A stretch of 64,000 bases of DNA, taken from Aequorivita sp. GTDB taxonomy: Bacteria > Bacteroidota > Bacteroidia > Flavobacteriales > Flavobacteriaceae. Shown here piece by piece: positions 49,873 through 55,996 of this stretch (its first letter is position 1; every line of letters starts with the position of its first letter). The position numbers and the translations under genes are program-made. Below the pieces are notes generated by a model. It made no database searches. It was not told where the DNA came from and worked only from the letters and a program-made list of their open reading frames with translations. The stretch is from assembly GCA_048268785.1 (NCBI GenBank), contig JBLWUV010000001.1:300962-364961 (forward strand). The letters are read 5' to 3'.

Positions 49873-50523
49873 ATGCGGATAAATTTAATTGCCATTGCCT
49901 TATTCATTTTTTGTGGAAATGCTTTTTCACAAATTGATCTTCCCAATAATTCCGTTCGTTTTGATGCCTCGCAAAACAATTTGGAAAGTTCCACAGGGTT
50001 TGAAATTCCTGCGGTGAAAGCGCCCACTCTTTCCAATACCAAAAATCCGAATGTGCCCGACAACACTCTGGGAAAGGAGGAGGAAAAACCTTTGGATTTG
50101 CAAAACGGCGATGGACTTTTGGAATATACAGGGAGCAATAAAGTCCCTAAATATTTCTCGAAAGATAAAGAGGCAAAACCCGAATTCGGAAGGGACCAAT
50201 ACCTTGGTGATTTCAAGACCACTGCAAAATTTGCCACCTTTATGTACCGCGATCACGAATTTGTGGATGGCGATATGATTCGCGTTTACGTGAACGGTGA
50301 TGTGGTGATTCCCCAAGCAAGGCTCGAAGGTAGCTTCCGCGGTTTTGATGTGCCGCTAAAATCAGGTTTCAACAAAGTAGATTTTGAGGCCCTGAATCAA
50401 GGAAGTTCCGGACCCAACACTGCCCAATTGGTGATTTATGACGAAGTGGGCAACCAATTGGCTTCCTATGAATGGAATTTGCTAACGGGCAACAAAGCCA
50501 CGGCTATTTTGGTTAAGGAATAA
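49873..50523 (+). CDS. Secreted hypothetical protein
   Basis: 216 aa with signal peptide MRINLIAIALFIFCGNAFSQ. No family recognised. Confidence 0.6.
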   Translation: MRINLIAIALFIFCGNAFSQIDLPNNSVRFDASQNNLESSTGFEIPAVKAPTLSNTKNPNVPDNTLGKEEEKPLDLQNGDGLLEYTGSNKVPKYFSKDKEAKPEFGRDQYLGDFKTTAKFATFMYRDHEFVDGDMIRVYVNGDVVIPQARLEGSFRGFDVPLKSGFNKVDFEALNQGSSGPNTAQLVIYDEVGNQLASYEWNLLTGNKATAILVKE

Positions 50524-50643: not shown

Positions 50644-52392
50644 ATGAATGTTTCCGAACAAATCCTCCAAATCCTTAAGGAAGTTGGGGTCACCCAAATT
50701 TGGGGTGTAACGGGCGACGCCTTAAATACGTTTACTGATGCCCTTCGCGATGATGACCAAATAAAATGGATAGCCGTGCGCCACGAAGAAAATGGTGCGT
50801 TTGCCGCCGGAGCTGAGGCCCAAATGACGGAAAACCTCGCCGTTTGTGCGGGTACAGTGGGTCCCGGTACGCTTCATTTAATTAATGGACTTTACAACGC
50901 AAAAAAGGAGCGGGTGCCGGTTTTGGCAATTAGTGGGCAAGTGGCCCGCGAAAATTTGGGTACCAATTATTTTCAGGAAGTGGGGCTCACTAAAATTTTT
51001 GATGATGTTTGCGCCTACCAAGCCGTAATACGATCGGCGGAAGAAGCACCGCGGGTCGTTTTAAAGGCCATCCAAATTGCGTTGGAACAACGCGCGGTGG
51101 TTCGGGTAGAAATCCCAGTCGATATTGCGGTGGAAGAGGCAAAGGGTTCGCATTACAAACATCCGGTGTTTCGGGGCAATGCCACCCTTGTTCCGTCTGA
51201 GGAAGACGTCAATAAAATTGCAAATGCGTTGAACAAGGCCGAAAAAATAACCATTTTGGCCGGGGCAGGTTGTCGCGGCTGCCGAGAAGCAGTTTTGTCG
51301 CTTTCAGAAAAATTAAAGGCCCCCATTGTCCATACCCTTCGCTCTTCAGACGTGATCCACAATGACGATAAAAATGTGGTTGGCCTCACGGGCTTGATCG
51401 GAAATCCTTCGGGATATCACGCCGTGATGGAGGCGGAGGTCCTTTTGATGCTGGGCACCGATTTTCCGTATAGCAATTTCCTTCCGGACGATTCCACGAT
51501 TGTCCAAATCGATAAGCGTATAGAAAATATTGGCAATCGCGTTAAAGTGGACATTGGTGTGCAGGGCGATTGTTCGGCAACGCTTCAGCAGTTGGATTCA
51601 AAAATTCTTCCAAAGAATGACACCCAATTTTTGGATGGGTTGGTGGAACATTTCACCAAATGGAAAAAGCAAAAAGAGGAGAGCAGCAGTCTGAAAAATG
51701 ATGAAGAACCGTTGCATCCACAGTTGTTTATGAATGTCATCAACCGAAAAGCCGCGAACGACGCCTGTTTTACGGTTGATGTTGGCGAAAGTGCCATTTG
51801 GGTGGCCCACCATCTAACCCTAAATGGCAAACGGAGGTTGCTCGGCTCTTTTAATCACGGTTCTATGGCCGTGGGTTTTCCGGCGGCCTTGGGAATTCAA
51901 TCTGTAAACCCGGGGCGGCAGGTCTGGGCCATCGTGGGCGATGGTGCCTTTGGAATGTGCATGAACGATTTTATAACCGCCGTTCGGTATAATTGGCCCC
52001 TGAAAATATTGGTTTACAACAATAGTCAGCTGGGCTTCGTAAAAATTGAAATGGAAGAAGCGGGCTTTGCCATGGCAGACGAGGCACTGGGGCTTCAAAA
52101 TCCAAATTTCGCCGAATATGCCAAACTTTGCGGGGGCGATGGTTTTCGCGTGACGCACGCTTCTGATATTGAAAAAGCCATCGATTTGGCAATCGCCTCC
52201 CCGAAACCCTTTATTATAGATGCGGTTACCAATCCGGGCGAACTTTCGCTGCCTCCCAACATCACGTTGGAAGAGGCGTGGGGCTTTGGAAAGTCGAAAG
52301 TGAAGGAAATTTTACTTTCGGTTAAAGGCGATAAAAACCAAAAATCCAACTTGATGGATGAAATAAAAGCCTTTTTCCACAATTCAAAATAA
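50644..52392 (+). CDS. Thiamine-diphosphate-dependent enzyme, pyruvate oxidase / pyruvate:quinone dehydrogenase (PoxB)-like
   Basis: 582 aa. The N-terminal Pyr domain (IWGVTGDALN...RHEENGAFAA), a central FAD-like domain, and the TPP motif GDGAF....N are all present. Confidence 0.8.
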   Translation: MNVSEQILQILKEVGVTQIWGVTGDALNTFTDALRDDDQIKWIAVRHEENGAFAAGAEAQMTENLAVCAGTVGPGTLHLINGLYNAKKERVPVLAISGQVARENLGTNYFQEVGLTKIFDDVCAYQAVIRSAEEAPRVVLKAIQIALEQRAVVRVEIPVDIAVEEAKGSHYKHPVFRGNATLVPSEEDVNKIANALNKAEKITILAGAGCRGCREAVLSLSEKLKAPIVHTLRSSDVIHNDDKNVVGLTGLIGNPSGYHAVMEAEVLLMLGTDFPYSNFLPDDSTIVQIDKRIENIGNRVKVDIGVQGDCSATLQQLDSKILPKNDTQFLDGLVEHFTKWKKQKEESSSLKNDEEPLHPQLFMNVINRKAANDACFTVDVGESAIWVAHHLTLNGKRRLLGSFNHGSMAVGFPAALGIQSVNPGRQVWAIVGDGAFGMCMNDFITAVRYNWPLKILVYNNSQLGFVKIEMEEAGFAMADEALGLQNPNFAEYAKLCGGDGFRVTHASDIEKAIDLAIASPKPFIIDAVTNPGELSLPPNITLEEAWGFGKSKVKEILLSVKGDKNQKSNLMDEIKAFFHNSK

Positions 52393-52415
52393 TTTAATCT
52401 TAAAATAAAAATAAT

Positions 52416-53945
52416 GTGAGAGAAGCAATCCAGTTCACTTTTATAGCCTTGGGGGTTATTGCCGTAATAACCTGCACTGCCATTTGGCCGGTTTATGGTT
52501 TTTCAATCTTGGGCGCCTTCATTTTTGGAATCGGGATCTATGACCTTTTTCAGAAAAAACACTCCATTCTTCGCAACTTTCCGGTTTTGGGCCATATGCG
52601 TTTTCTGTTGGAAATGATTGGGCCCGAACTGCACCAATATTTTGTTGAAAACGATACCGACGGAAAACCCATTGACCGGAACCATAGGGCGTATGTGTAT
52701 CAAAGATCGAAATTGCAGAACGAAACCCACCCGTTTGGGACTGAACTAAACGTGGAAGCCGAAAATTACAAATGGATGAAACACAGCATCTATCCCACCA
52801 AACTTTTGGAAACGCCGCCGCGGGTGGTGGTGGGCGGACCGGACTGCAAACAGCCATATAGCGCGAGTATTTTTAATATTTCTGCAATGAGTTATGGCGC
52901 CCTGAGCAAAAACGCGGTAATGGCTTTGAATTTGGGGGCTAAGGCCGGAAATTTTTTTCACGATACCGGCGAAGGGGGCATCTCTGATTATCATTTAAAG
53001 GGCGGCGACCTGGTTTATGAGGTAGGCACGGGCTATTTTGGCTGTAGAACGGAAGACGGGAATTTTTCTCCTCAAAAATTTAAGGAAAAGGCGGCGCTTC
53101 CCACGGTAAAAATGATTGAGATCAAGATATCCCAAGGTGCGAAACCCGGTCATGGCGGGGTGTTGCCAGCTGTAAAAAACAACGAGGAAATTGCGAAAAT
53201 TCGAGGGGTAAAACCGCACACCACGGTTCTTTCACCACCCGGCCATAGCGCGTTTAACGATGCGGAAGGATTGCTGAAATTCGTAAAACAAATGCGCGAA
53301 TTGAGTAACGGTAAACCGATCGGTTTCAAACTTTGCATTGGGAGCAAACAGGAGTTTATTGACATTTGTGAAAAAATGGTCGAAACCGGCATTAAGCCCG
53401 ATTTTATAACCGTTGATGGGTCCGAGGGAGGCACAGGCGCAGCGCCCATTGATTTTTCAAACTATGTGGGGATGCCTTGGGAAAAGGCACTTGTTTTTGT
53501 GGTGGACACTTTAAATGGCTATGGTTTAAAAAAGGATATTAAGGTGGTGACGGCAACGAAAATCTTTACCGCTTTTGATATTTTTAAAGCCCTCTGCATT
53601 GGTGCCGATATTTGCAATTCAGCGCGCGGAATGATGTTGGCTCTGGGTTGTATTCAAGCGTTGCGATGCGACACGAACAAATGTCCTACCGGTGTTACCA
53701 CCAACAACCCAAGCCTAATGCGGGGGTTGGTGGTGGAAGAAAAGTGGAAGCGCGTGCGGAATTACCAAAAGGAAACGGTCAAGGAATTTCTGGAATTATT
53801 TGCTGCCGCAGGCTGTAAAACGCTTTCAGATTTAAATAGAAGTTTTATCTTTAAGCAAGTGGAAACGGAAATAAAATGTTACGAAGAACTATATCCTCCC
53901 GTGAAAGAGGGTAAATTTATAAAGGAGTCCTACGACGCATTTTGA
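52416..53945 (+). CDS. FMN-binding glutamate synthase-family protein (GltB domain-2-like), membrane anchored
   Basis: 509 aa with a GTG start and two N-terminal TM helices. The TIM-barrel region includes KISQGAKPGHGG.LP and DGSEGGTGAAP. Confidence 0.85.
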   Translation: MREAIQFTFIALGVIAVITCTAIWPVYGFSILGAFIFGIGIYDLFQKKHSILRNFPVLGHMRFLLEMIGPELHQYFVENDTDGKPIDRNHRAYVYQRSKLQNETHPFGTELNVEAENYKWMKHSIYPTKLLETPPRVVVGGPDCKQPYSASIFNISAMSYGALSKNAVMALNLGAKAGNFFHDTGEGGISDYHLKGGDLVYEVGTGYFGCRTEDGNFSPQKFKEKAALPTVKMIEIKISQGAKPGHGGVLPAVKNNEEIAKIRGVKPHTTVLSPPGHSAFNDAEGLLKFVKQMRELSNGKPIGFKLCIGSKQEFIDICEKMVETGIKPDFITVDGSEGGTGAAPIDFSNYVGMPWEKALVFVVDTLNGYGLKKDIKVVTATKIFTAFDIFKALCIGADICNSARGMMLALGCIQALRCDTNKCPTGVTTNNPSLMRGLVVEEKWKRVRNYQKETVKEFLELFAAAGCKTLSDLNRSFIFKQVETEIKCYEELYPPVKEGKFIKESYDAF

Positions 53946-53963: not shown

Positions 53964-54422
53964 ATGAAAAAAGTTTTGATAACCTTGGACTATAATCCAA
54001 AATCTGAAAAAGTGGTTCAGATGGGCCACGAACTGGCAAAATTGATGGACGCGGAGATTTGTCTGTTCCACGTTTTGGCCGAAGTGCGCTATTATGGAAT
54101 GCAATATGAACCCTTTATGGGCTACGAGGGTTATGCCTTTCCGGTAGATTATAAAATTCAGGAAGAATTTGTGAAGGTAGCGCAGGATTATTTGGATAAA
54201 ACCGCGGTACATTTGGGCGCCGGAAATATTTCGACCCATTTGGCCGAGGGCGATACCGCCGATGCTATTTTGGAATATGCCAAGGAATGGAGGGCAGATG
54301 TTATTGTTATGGGCGCACACCGCCACGGCACTTTGGAAAAACTTTTTCTCGGAACCGTTGCCTCCAGTGTCTTGGAGCGCACAAGCATTCCGGTTTATAT
54401 GGTTCCTACTGGATCGGAATAA
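53964..54422 (+). CDS. Universal stress protein (UspA family)
   Basis: 152 aa with the C-terminal ATP-binding motif VMGAHRHGTLEKLFLGTVASSVLERTSIPV. Confidence 0.9.
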   Translation: MKKVLITLDYNPKSEKVVQMGHELAKLMDAEICLFHVLAEVRYYGMQYEPFMGYEGYAFPVDYKIQEEFVKVAQDYLDKTAVHLGAGNISTHLAEGDTADAILEYAKEWRADVIVMGAHRHGTLEKLFLGTVASSVLERTSIPVYMVPTGSE

Positions 54423-54457
54423 GAGTAAATCTTTAAGTAAAAACTATTTAGAAAATT

Positions 54458-54727
54458 ATGGCTTTAACCAATAATGATATTATGAAAAAACTTCGCGTAG
54501 CCCATAAACTCCGCGATGATGATATTGTAAAAATCTGTGCTTTGGTCGATTTCGCAGTAACCAAAAGTGAGCTCGGGGCCATATTCCGCAATGAAAACCA
54601 CGAAAAATATATGGAATGTGGCGATCAATTTCTTCGTAATTTTTTAAACGGATTGATCGTCCATCTTCGGGGACCTATGCCAGAAAGGAAAGGCAATAGT
54701 CTAAGTTCCACCAAGAAAAAAAGCTGA
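54458..54727 (+). CDS. DUF1456 (YehS-like) single-domain protein
   Basis: 89 aa. MALTNNDIMKKLRVAHKLRDDDIVKI...FLNGLIVHLRG matches my recollection of the DUF1456 repeat. Confidence 0.7.
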   Translation: MALTNNDIMKKLRVAHKLRDDDIVKICALVDFAVTKSELGAIFRNENHEKYMECGDQFLRNFLNGLIVHLRGPMPERKGNSLSSTKKKS

Positions 54728-54750
54728 ATTAAATTTCTTTAATCCAGCTT
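54712..54750 (-). terminator. Rho-independent terminator closing the minus-strand micro-ORF array
   Basis: The minus strand reads aagctggattaaa-gaaa-tttaattcagctt, a 13-bp stem with 1 mismatch, followed by T8. It overlaps the 3' end of the convergent DUF1456 gene. Confidence 0.55.
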
Positions 54751-54776
54751 TATGAGGGGAACGGCTTTTTGGTCGG

Positions 54777-54911
54777 TCAATAGGCGTGTCGGCATGTTTT
54801 TCTAATTGTGGGATCTTCAAACAAATGCTGGTTGCCGTTTAGGAAATTCAGCGTATGTTGTCTTTGCGATCCGCATTTTATTCTTTTTTGAATGTTTCGC
54901 AAGGTTTTCAT
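54777..54911 (-). CDS. Micro-ORF 1 of tandem array (44 aa, basic, Cys/His-containing)
   Basis: Hand translation: MKTLRNIQKRIKCGSQRQHTLNFLNGNQHLFEDPTIRKTCRHAY*. It shares the MxTL start and an A-rich leader (ctcaaaaacaaaaactATG) with the two upstream micro-ORFs. Confidence 0.4.
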   Translation of the reverse strand: MKTLRNIQKRIKCGSQRQHTLNFLNGNQHLFEDPTIRKTCRHAY

Positions 54912-54935
54912 AGTTTTTGTTTTTGAGTGATTGCG

Positions 54936-55022
54936 TTACTTAAAACGTCTTTTCGAATTCCAAGTATAGGATTTGGAAGTTGCTGGTCGATGCAGTCTTT
55001 CGTTGGTGTCCAATGTTCTCAT
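54936..55022 (-). CDS. Micro-ORF 2 of tandem array (28 aa, basic)
   Basis: Hand translation: MRTLDTNERLHRPATSKSYTWNSKRRFK*. Paralogous to micro-ORF 3, with synonymous differences in the conserved codons. Confidence 0.45.
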   Translation of the reverse strand: MRTLDTNERLHRPATSKSYTWNSKRRFK

Positions 55023-55054
55023 GGTTTTAATTTTTAAGGGTTATAATCTTCTTC

Positions 55055-55141
55055 TTAGCGATACCTTCTTTTTAAATTCCAGTTATACGCTTTTGTGGTC
55101 TTCATTTTTTCGGTTAAAAGATTACTATCCAAAGTTCTCAT
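55055..55141 (-). CDS. Micro-ORF 3 of tandem array (28 aa, basic)
   Basis: Hand translation: MRTLDSNLLTEKMKTTKAYNWNLKRRYR*. Leader is ctaaaaaatttaaaaATG. Confidence 0.45.
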   Translation of the reverse strand: MRTLDSNLLTEKMKTTKAYNWNLKRRYR

Positions 55142-55331
55142 TTTTAAATTTTTTAGTGGTTTATACTTAAAAGACGCGATAGATTGATATATGTTACAGT
55201 ACTATGTAATACAAAGTAATGATTTAACGAAAGATTAACTTTTAATACTTTAAAACACTGAAATAGGAGGGTTTAACAAACCATTAACCCGAAAGGCTAC
55301 TGAAAAGGTTGTGAACGAGCGAGCTTCCCGC

Positions 55332-55339
55332 TATATTTG
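55332..55339 (+). promoter_or_regulatory. Candidate Bacteroidota -7 promoter box (TAnnTTTG) for the downstream membrane-protein gene
   Basis: TATATTTG at 55332-55339, with a TTG about 20 nt upstream (55309-55311). Its position argues for ATG 55382 rather than TTG 55337 as the start codon. Confidence 0.35.
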
Positions 55340-55381
55340 CACCCGAAAACAAAGGTGTTTTTTCAGCATAAAAATTTTAGT

Positions 55382-55996
55382 ATGAATACCGTCCGAAAAT
55401 CTGAAACCAATAAATTTAAGCGCGCCCACCTTTATTATAAATATACCGGCTTTTATTCCTTTGTTGGCCAAAGTTTAAAAAAGGCCTTGCTGCCCACAAT
55501 GGTGGTTATTGCAGCGCTCATTCTCCTCGATCTTTATGTGGTGGATTTTAGCAATCTGTTCACCTATATAACCGAAACGTATGCTCCCATTAATATTTTG
55601 TTGGTGTTTTTGGCTTCCGAATCTCTTTTAGGTTTGGTGCCGCCCGAAATTTTTATTGCCTGGAGCGATAAGATGCCAGAGCCTATGCTTTATTTGACGC
55701 TTTTGGCTGCCTTGTCCTATCTTGGGGGAATAATTTCCTATTTCATCGGCAAATGGATTTTTACCATTCCGCGGGTCTATTCCTATATGGAAGGAAAAAT
55801 GAAGAAACACTTAAAGCAAATCCGCAAGTGGGGTGGCTTTTTGATTGTTGTTGGCGCCTTGTTGCCCATTCCATATTCCATAACCAGTATGGCTGCGGGA
55901 ACCATTCATTATAAATTCCGAAACTTTTTACTGTTCGGTCTTCTACGGTTTGTAAGGTTTTATTTATATGCCATTGCCATTTTCAGTTTGGTGTAG
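55382..55996 (+). CDS. VTT/DedA-YqaA-like (SNARE-associated) membrane protein
   Basis: 204 aa from ATG 55382, with 4-5 TM helices. The motif region FLASESLLGLVPPEIF...GG.ISYFIGKW resembles DedA/YqaA family proteins. Confidence 0.6.
   Translation: MNTVRKSETNKFKRAHLYYKYTGFYSFVGQSLKKALLPTMVVIAALILLDLYVVDFSNLFTYITETYAPINILLVFLASESLLGLVPPEIFIAWSDKMPEPMLYLTLLAALSYLGGIISYFIGKWIFTIPRVYSYMEGKMKKHLKQIRKWGGFLIVVGALLPIPYSITSMAAGTIHYKFRNFLLFGLLRFVRFYLYAIAIFSLV

Follow-up and report, generated by a model that had tools for sequence, protein, structure and literature searches.

A conserved array of small-protein genes behind an ECF-like promoter block in Aequorivita and other marine Flavobacteriaceae

We analysed a 64,000-nt stretch of the genome of Aequorivita sp. 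(assembly GCA_048268785.1, contig JBLWUV010000001.1, positions 300,962 to 364,961; hereafter the window), in which the region between a DUF1456 gene and a VTT-domain protein gene carries an array of three small open reading frames (sORFs) on the minus strand. The coordinates and translations of these three frames are exactly those given in an initial annotation of this DNA, as are the flanking DUF1456, VTT, MFS and Crp-like genes, and its view of the array as an independent, unannotated minus-strand transcription unit is supported by the signals on either side, a conserved promoter-like block before the array and an intrinsic terminator after it. The features of the locus, numbered by position in the window, are as follows.

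54458-54727, plus strand: DUF1456 gene, convergent with the array.
54713..54751, minus strand: intrinsic terminator, a hairpin plus T-run, overlapping the 3' end of the convergent DUF1456 gene.
54777..54911, minus strand: sORF3, 44 aa, MKTLRNIQKRIKCGSQRQHTLNFLNGNQHLFEDPTIRKTCRHAY, the terminal companion small protein.
54936..55022, minus strand: sORF2, 28 aa, MRTLDTNERLHRPATSKSYTWNSKRRFK, the Aequorivita-type 'HRP' paralogue.
55055..55141, minus strand: sORF1, 28 aa, MRTLDSNLLTEKMKTTKAYNWNLKRRYR.
55142..55167, minus strand: predicted transcription start region (AGTATAA) and the short, A-rich leader of sORF1, devoid of a Shine-Dalgarno (SD) motif.
55173..55206, minus strand: promoter-like element of the extracytoplasmic function (ECF) sigma type, CATAGTAC-TGTAAC (-35, 55198..55193), a 16-nt spacer and CGTC (-10, 55176..55173).
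55212..55218, minus strand: TA[CT]WTTG block (here TACTTTG), conserved across loci.
55224..55239, minus strand: GTTAA-N6-GTTAA direct repeat (units 55239..55235 and 55228..55224), a candidate activator or response-regulator site.
From 55382, plus strand: VTT-domain protein gene flanking the array, followed by the MFS and Crp-like protein genes.

The sORFs lie 119 and 111 nt apart from start to start, and their leaders and first codons form a family of 34-nt direct repeats; a search across the 64-kb window for a further copy of the array returned none. The only terminator-like site within 54400-55600 is the minus-strand hairpin at 54751..54720, for which 13 base pairs and a run of eight U had been reported. 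That was approximately right, the computed stem having 14 pairs and a loop of 4, followed by the T-run. Usp, DUF1456, VTT, MFS and Crp-like protein genes make up the flanking gene set in the window.

Orthologous DUF1456-VTT intergenic regions were gathered through the VTT protein and a peptide-based scan of species-representative genomes, yielding 20 Aequorivita-like genomes. The query of the genome scan was a concatenation of the three peptides, one of its patterns spanning an artificial junction and the other being specific to sORF1, and the 17 Aequorivita-like loci that it returned carry little information on distribution beyond that clade. In all 20 genomes sORF1 and sORF2 are exactly 28 codons long (one sORF2 with a TTG start), sORF3 has 42-44 codons and the order of the three is constant, while the spacers between them range from 20 to 51 nt, so that the relative reading frames differ. 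One of these genomes (L026) carries a duplicated sORF1. The pooled Nei-Gojobori ratio of nonsynonymous to synonymous substitution (dN/dS), for which the two other frames of each alignment served as controls, was 0.14 in frame versus 0.66-1.64 off frame for sORF1, 0.20 versus 0.85-1.45 for sORF2 and 0.11 versus 1.25-1.27 for sORF3. Sequence variability is concentrated at third codon positions, and in GCA_009668655.1 ('Vitellibacter sp. q18'), which differs from the window by 7 single-nucleotide polymorphisms over the 691-nt region, both polymorphisms that fall within sORFs (55124 in sORF1 and 54984 in sORF2) are synonymous. Metagenomic arrays from 80 loci, described below, gave a proportion of synonymous differences (pS) of 0.64 versus 0.24 for nonsynonymous ones (pN). 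The in-frame range of 0.11-0.20 versus 0.66-1.64 off frame, the dominance of third-position variability and the constancy of the 28 codons amid varying spacers bear out the earlier proposal that selection acts on the peptide and not on an RNA or DNA repeat. At the syntenic position A. marina has only a 285-nt gap holding no sORFs, and the array is absent from the syntenic region of Constantimarinum furrinae. Given the constancy of frame, length and order and dN/dS values far below 1, we regard the sORFs as genes rather than chance reading frames, and these patterns indicate that they are very probably real, translated and selected small-protein genes in a transcription unit of their own.

To place the array in a broader context, metagenome contigs were scanned with a profile of the 28-aa peptide (28-mer) and the pattern YxWNxKRR[FY][KRH], which confirmed 185 loci, the best 80 of which were analysed. 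Two points proposed for testing alongside the initial annotation came out positive: the reading frames are kept in frame, order and length across the 20 genomes and about 80 metagenomic loci, and copy number varies, with each metagenomic locus encoding a 28- or 29-aa peptide 1-4 times in tandem, on one strand and at intervals of 117-150 nt. Across 155 distinct 28-mers with the consensus MRTL[ND][SN]NQ..K.Y.WN.KRR[YF][RK], residues M1, W21, N22, K24, R25 and R26 are invariant and R2, T3 and L4 are conserved at 98-99%; the variable part consists of residues 8-15, both termini being nearly invariant. These peptides have a mean net charge of +6.1, an isoelectric point of 11.3 and a grand average of hydropathy (GRAVY) of -1.51, their longest apolar run is at most 4 residues, and neither a signal peptide nor a GG leader is visible in them. 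This composition agrees with the original impression that they resemble neither type I toxins nor GG-leader precursors.

Nucleotide identity between copies is 81% within an array versus 70% between arrays, which points to ongoing duplication or conversion. Degenerate copies were also seen: L042 has a shortened 19-aa copy (MKTLNSTKKQEWNSKRRYR) about 37 nt after a 32-aa copy, and L077 has a copy with a premature stop (MKTFDSNQLT, then stop) about 50 nt after its single copy, suggesting birth-and-death turnover of array members. The named genera with arrays are Aequorivita, Altibacter (A. lentus, one copy, L116 6915..6829), Cochleicola (C. gelatinilyticus, two copies plus companion, L117 7951..7530) and, identified via flanking proteins, Xanthomarina and Marixanthomonas; a scan of viral contigs found no arrays. 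The family is so far restricted to marine Flavobacteriaceae.

The three frames had originally been described as paralogous. Paralogy is clear for sORF1 and sORF2, but for sORF3 the resemblance is confined to M[KR]TL and the leader. Two hhalign comparisons of sORF3 with the 28-mers, one based on the Aequorivita alignments and the other on all 155 and 41 sequences, had the same outcome, with only the first five residues (M[KR]TL) aligning; profile-profile comparison thus leaves homology unsupported, and sORF3 is better regarded as a separate small protein that accompanies the 28-mers and has their start context. Its Aequorivita profile recognises a 43-45-aa sORF after the 28-mers in 33 loci. About half of the remaining distinct arrays have a diverged 41-48-aa sORF, 31-67 nt past the last 28-mer, which is too distant for that profile and has a common C-terminal ..[KNC]R[YF][AVI][YHS]. 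Such diverged companions were noted in L036, L043, L044, L046, L051, L052, L055, L061-L063, L068, L072, L073, L076, L079, L080, L082, L084, L099, L101, L103 and L107. The companion, whose mean net charge is +6.5, appears to be near-universal but fast-evolving. One sub-lineage truly lacks it and keeps 2-4 copies of the 28-mer, the array closing with a 29-aa copy (..KRRYRK) and the terminator following directly (loci L056, L065, L066, L070, L071, L074, L081, L083, L085-L090, L102 and L114). Searched against 5.8 billion proteins, the sORF3 profile had 5 matches; against 1.84 billion representatives it had about 8 that are genuine. All are of 43-47 aa and either unnamed or 'hypothetical', and the hidden Markov model (HMM) scan of the 1.84 billion representatives revealed no informative domain fusions among its matches. 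Three further candidates (P0130, P0131 and P0133) were rejected as low-complexity or repeat matches. An AlphaFold2 model of sORF3 is a helical hairpin of generic helices, predicted with moderate confidence (mean predicted local distance difference test, pLDDT, of 77).

Upstream of the arrays, a block of sequence is near-invariant across lineages though the neighbouring gene changes. Its consensus is GTTAA-N5/6-GTTAAAt.a.TAcTTTG...CATAGTAC-TGTAAC-N16-CGTCTaT..AGTATAAC, followed by the A-rich leader and ATG. GTAAC-N16-CGTC was identified in 78 of 81 distinct upstream regions, the spacer being 16 nt in every case and the distance between CGTC and ATG mostly 30-32 nt; 74 of the 78 motif-bearing regions also contain GTTAA-N5/6-GTTAA, placed in 71 cases exactly 26 nt ahead of GTAAC. 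TGTAAC-N16/17-CGTCT occurs 105 times in 896 kb of fetched DNA, each time preceding an array, and TGTAAC-N16-CGTC occurs once in the window (55198..55173) versus 0.08 expected. Promoters of ECF sigma factors have AAC in the -35 element, CGT(C) in the -10 element and a spacer of 14-17 bp (PMC5758882). The array block, with AAC at -35, CGTC at -10 and its 16-nt spacer, matches this signature, which suggests signal-dependent transcription of the ECF type with an upstream activator site; we would give roughly even odds that the array is under such control. Interpretation of the upstream blocks as structured RNA was rejected, since they are not complementary and the spacer is fixed in length and free in sequence, as in a promoter. 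A stable hairpin plus T-run begins 20-32 nt past the last stop in 38 of 78 arrays versus 1 of 124 random control windows. Together, the promoter block and the terminators suggest that the unit is self-contained. Two loci with a single 28/29-aa copy (L108/L110) are without GTAAC-N16-CGTC and have a canonical Bacteroidota-type TAGATTTG -7 box, which is located about 30 nt in front of the ATG and has a GGTTAAC-N5-GGTTAAC repeat upstream of it. The peptide gene seems to have exchanged one promoter for another in this lineage.

The start context was examined in 203 distinct leaders, a single one of which contains an SD-like motif; the A-rich, SD-less leaders described earlier were recovered for all three sORFs of the window. 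An A is present at position -3 in 100% of first copies, 94% of internal copies and 84% of companion sORFs, and at -12/-13 in 100%/95%, 95%/83% and 93%/84%, respectively. Ribosome profiling and reporters have established that A at -3, -12 and -13 raises initiation in Flavobacterium johnsoniae (PMC6847099). The sORF leaders carry exactly these high-efficiency positions and are thus predicted to be efficiently translatable. A CA-rich motif, (A)TCAATCAA, is found in the window in the spacer before sORF3 (54912-54935). In many loci it stands right past the stop of the last 28-mer, and in some also in the 5' leader; it is sometimes repeated 2-4 times (e.g., L079/L080), recurs in companion leaders and is retained even by arrays that have no companion. 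It may enhance translation or serve in processing.

As initially stated, the peptides fall outside known families. Pfam and NCBIfam searches with the three peptides returned 0 families, and sequence-profile searches of the PDB yielded nothing beyond a chance 'RxLDSN' repeat in actinohivin. The PDB chains searched include the ribosomes of F. johnsoniae and P. gingivalis with bS22 and bL38, and for the known small ribosomal proteins (bTHX, bS22, bL38, bL34 and bL36) neither family models nor ribosome chains matched the peptides. Rfam had no match within the array and three sub-threshold chance matches nearby. A sub-threshold S15-Flavobacteria ribosomal leader at 55332-55384 (plus strand), upstream of the VTT gene, scored 28.6 bits versus a gathering threshold of 46.5 (E = 0.57) and is probably a chance match. 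Literature on the peptide motifs, flavobacterial sORFs and the promoter motif contained no description of the family that we could find. In the public records fetched, no 28-mer is called, and a call for the 44-mer is present in just a handful. The minimum gene length of Prodigal is 90 nt, and 28 codons plus a stop amount to 87 nt, just under that limit. Public calls mishandle these loci, as in a 68-aa call overlapping the Altibacter 28-mer (L116 6654-6860, minus strand), a 65-aa, N-terminally extended Cochleicola companion (L117 7530-7727, minus strand) and a 174-aa read-through mis-call running antisense through DUF1456 (P0126).

The initial annotation had also pointed to the MFS exporter and the Crp-family regulator near the array. 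That link found no support, as the MFS gene is not adjacent in A. viscosa, nor in most other lineages, Crp is often missing, and immediate neighbours change freely across loci. These neighbours include DUF1456, h216 (a hypothetical, secreted protein of 216 aa), an SF2 helicase, a DEAD-box helicase, a CSD protein, RlmF, a pseudouridine synthase, HupE/UreJ, a META/T9SS protein, VTT and MFS. The most recurrent are h216, in 21 of 80 loci, and DUF1456, in 19 of 80, and the orientation, distance and identity of recurring neighbours are not constant. These genes appear to be pieces of one ancestral Flavobacteriaceae neighbourhood, variously shuffled, which argues for vertical inheritance rather than for a functional operon partner. 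A functional partnership with MFS, Crp, VTT or DUF1456 was rejected as unproven, given the variation in immediate neighbours.

Within this neighbourhood, the h216 homologue of the window (49873-50523, plus strand, 216 aa) has an N-terminal signal-like segment and no Pfam match, and in several other lineages a divergent homologue (33-53% identity) precedes the array by about 180-440 nt. Genes for a PoxB-like pyruvate dehydrogenase/oxidase and a glutamate-synthase-domain protein lie between the h216 gene and Usp (50644-53945, plus strand); the pair is also present in A. antarctica and is missing at that position in Aequorivita CP122379 and A. viscosa, suggesting an insertion or deletion polymorphism of the neighbourhood. 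In Cochleicola, a CSD - DEAD-box helicase - DUF1456 string (L117 5618-7455, plus strand) is convergent with the array, similar sets occur in L036, L041, L048 and L049, and elsewhere, too, arrays repeatedly have CSD, DEAD-box, RlmF and pseudouridine-synthase genes in their vicinity. The leaning of the neighbourhood towards RNA metabolism or cold shock may or may not be meaningful.

Taken together, the explanation that we consider best, with a probability of about 0.55, is that of an operon of translated small-protein genes, with ECF-type control as a likely part of it and RNA or ribosome binding by the products as its least certain part. The locus would be a polycistronic operon of about 450 nt, and the architecture proposed for the family consists of a dedicated promoter, 1-4 copies of the 28-29-aa gene, usually a 41-48-aa basic companion, and an intrinsic terminator. 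Its mode of action can be laid out in three steps, in decreasing order of confidence. First, a specific stress signal would induce transcription through an ECF-type sigma factor acting at GTAAC-N16-CGTC, probably with an activator at GTTAA-N5/6-GTTAA. Second, the tandem copies may act as a dosage device, providing several peptide molecules per mRNA. Third, and this is the weakest step, the peptides could remain in the cytoplasm and bind RNA or the ribosome stoichiometrically via their C-terminus, Y-x-W-N-x-K-R-R-Y/F-R/K, which is rich in aromatic residues and arginine. The latter proposal derives from the composition of the 28-mers, the absence of export or maturation genes and the lack of hydrophobic segments, and we advance RNA or ribosome binding as a tentative suggestion.

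Several observations weigh against this explanation. Binding rests on composition, as no similarity to RNA-binding or ribosomal proteins emerged from Pfam, NCBIfam or the PDB, and simple electrostatic RNA binding leaves the strict conservation of MRTL[ND][SN]NQ unexplained. In the seed copies, the invariance of the C-terminus is partly a product of the pattern used in the metagenome scan; additional copies, found by HMM rather than by this pattern, carry the same C-terminal residues. On the promoter side, no ECF gene carrying the same motif was seen in the flanks of the arrays, and the L108/L110 lineage uses a TAGATTTG box in place of the ECF-like block. Finally, TACTTTG resembles the Bacteroidota -7 box consensus TAnnTTTG, being one base short of it, and this second conserved block could belong to a different promoter.

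The evidence lowers every rival explanation, with chance reading frames alone being excluded. The one that survives best, although we consider it improbable, is that the 28-mers, as precursors, give rise to a peptide that is secreted or modified, i.e., a ribosomally synthesised and post-translationally modified peptide (RiPP), a leaderless bacteriocin-like antimicrobial or a signal, with maturation and export genes located elsewhere. Tandem, near-identical short precursor genes are typical of such loci, the 28-mers are cationic and contain Trp, and an MFS_3 'secretion effector' transporter lies nearby in Aequorivita. The C-terminal Y-x-W-N-x-K-R-R-Y may also be loosely reminiscent of the aromatic/Lys cross-link motifs of radical-SAM RiPPs, such as the darobactin core WNWSKSF and the dynobactin core WNSNVHSYRF. 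However, no maturase, protease or ABC exporter is linked in the flanks of the 80 loci: their 515 flanking ORFs include no radical-SAM CxxxCxxC protein (one 77-aa ORF excepted) and ABC-like motifs occur in the flanks of only 3 of 80, which argues against a RiPP or bacteriocin cluster at the locus. Pfam matches among the widely varying neighbours, which seldom include an adjacent MFS gene, are instead to helicases, CSD, RlmF, HupE/UreJ, DUF1456, VTT and MFS. The conservation of both termini around a variable middle is the opposite of a conserved leader and variable core. The peptides are also extremely hydrophilic (GRAVY -1.5), in contrast to leaderless bacteriocins, and have no signal or GG leader.

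Slightly less probable still is a toxin-like growth-arrest module, in which induction of the 28-mers would harm the cell, for example through condensation of nucleic acids or disturbance of membranes, and the ~44-aa companion would modulate or neutralise them. A conserved multi-copy part and one fast-diverging companion on a single transcript, a promoter that looks tightly controlled, and the degenerate or truncated copies of L042 and L077 would fit such a module. Yet none of the 155 distinct 28-mers has the hydrophobic helix of type I toxins, the companion is itself basic (+6.5) and cannot neutralise by charge, and a whole sub-lineage without it keeps 2-4 copies of the 28-mer. Inheritance is also vertical and syntenic, as opposed to the patchy, mobile distribution typical of toxin-antitoxin modules. 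A consensus scan showed no convincing plus-strand promoter/terminator pair inside the array that might mark an antisense RNA.

We consider it very unlikely that the sORFs regulate in cis or serve as leader ORFs, or that the transcript is mainly a regulatory RNA, so that the act of translation or the RNA itself matters and not the peptides. Copies do share their N-terminal codons and leader at the DNA level, and the whole transcript folds slightly better than shuffled sequences (z = -2.0), but this signal comes largely from the terminator hairpin, and Rfam has no match. There is also nothing downstream to regulate, the terminator being followed by a convergent gene, and purifying selection extends over the whole peptide, with synonymous sites saturated (pS 0.48-0.64) and pN low. 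Chance ORFs in an AT-rich intergenic repeat, suggested by the shortness of the frames and the silence of gene callers in the region, are already refuted by the comparative data, as some 100 loci, representing at least 5 genera, keep frame, length and order, with dN/dS well below 1.

The preferred explanation, a small-protein operon whose products act on RNA or the ribosome, can be extended to the 28-mers and companion being new stress-induced, ribosome- or RNA-targeting micro-proteins of Flavobacteriaceae, with a dedicated ECF/activator circuit for which the array is the only strong target; this is a possibility we hold with considerable doubt, and a new cross-linked Trp-Lys peptide produced by a distant maturase would be a less likely alternative. 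They might, for example, serve in hibernation or reprogram translation, with each mRNA yielding several copies of the factor. Independently of function, the array represents a deeply conserved protein family invisible to standard annotation, with a promoter architecture among the most rigidly conserved found in about 0.9 Mb of related DNA, and it is widespread among its carriers, the marine Flavobacteriaceae, which contribute greatly to ocean carbon turnover. Translation in Bacteroidota is unusual, with no SD use, the protein bL38 and autoregulation of bS21, and, if RNA or ribosome binding were true, the array would encode a new kind of stress effector in a phylum with an unusual translation apparatus.

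Among known systems, the E. coli proteins RMF (55 aa) and Sra/S22 (45 aa) are, like the 28-mers, small, strongly basic and hydrophilic, and bTHX (~26 aa), bS22 (~33 aa) and the Bacteroidia protein bL38 (5.6 kDa) are in their size and charge range. Small ribosomal or ribosome-associated proteins and 28-mers alike place aromatic residues within runs of K/R and have no signal peptide or transmembrane segment, and the stress-regulon dependence of RMF and Sra expression is paralleled by the ECF control suggested for the array. PMC11851116 presents bL38 as a Bacteroidia small ribosomal protein that went unrecognised until recently. Unlike RMF, Sra, bTHX, bS22 and bL38, the array genes are multi-copy and tandem; they are not universal, being absent from the syntenic regions of A. 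marina and Constantimarinum furrinae, and NCBIfam, Pfam and PDB profile searches showed no sequence similarity to these proteins.

The arginine-rich RNA-binding motifs of the lambda N and HIV Rev/Tat type are short basic segments with an essential aromatic residue. In the 28-mers W21, Y19 and Y/F27 stand beside K-R-R, a compositional analogy only, and these motifs have no counterpart of the N-terminal MRTL[ND][SN]NQ. Multi-peptide leaderless bacteriocin and PSM-type operons, such as those of aureocin A70 (aurABCD) and PSM-alpha, are alike in gene organisation, with leaderless, cationic, Trp-containing paralogues of ~20-30 aa encoded head-to-tail on one transcript. Those peptides form amphipathic or hydrophobic helices and have adjacent ABC exporters and immunity genes, whereas the 28-mers have a GRAVY of -1.5, apolar runs of at most 4 residues and no linked exporter or immunity gene. 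As for the promoter, the B. subtilis sigma-X/W/M/V promoters, with a -35 ending in AAC, CGTC at -10 and a 16-bp spacer, come close to the array consensus, although conservation at the arrays extends well past the usual -35 (CATAGTACTGTAACA) and includes the upstream direct repeat. Overall, the peptides belong to none of the families described so far, although polycistronic small-protein operons under alternative-sigma control are, as a general kind, already known.

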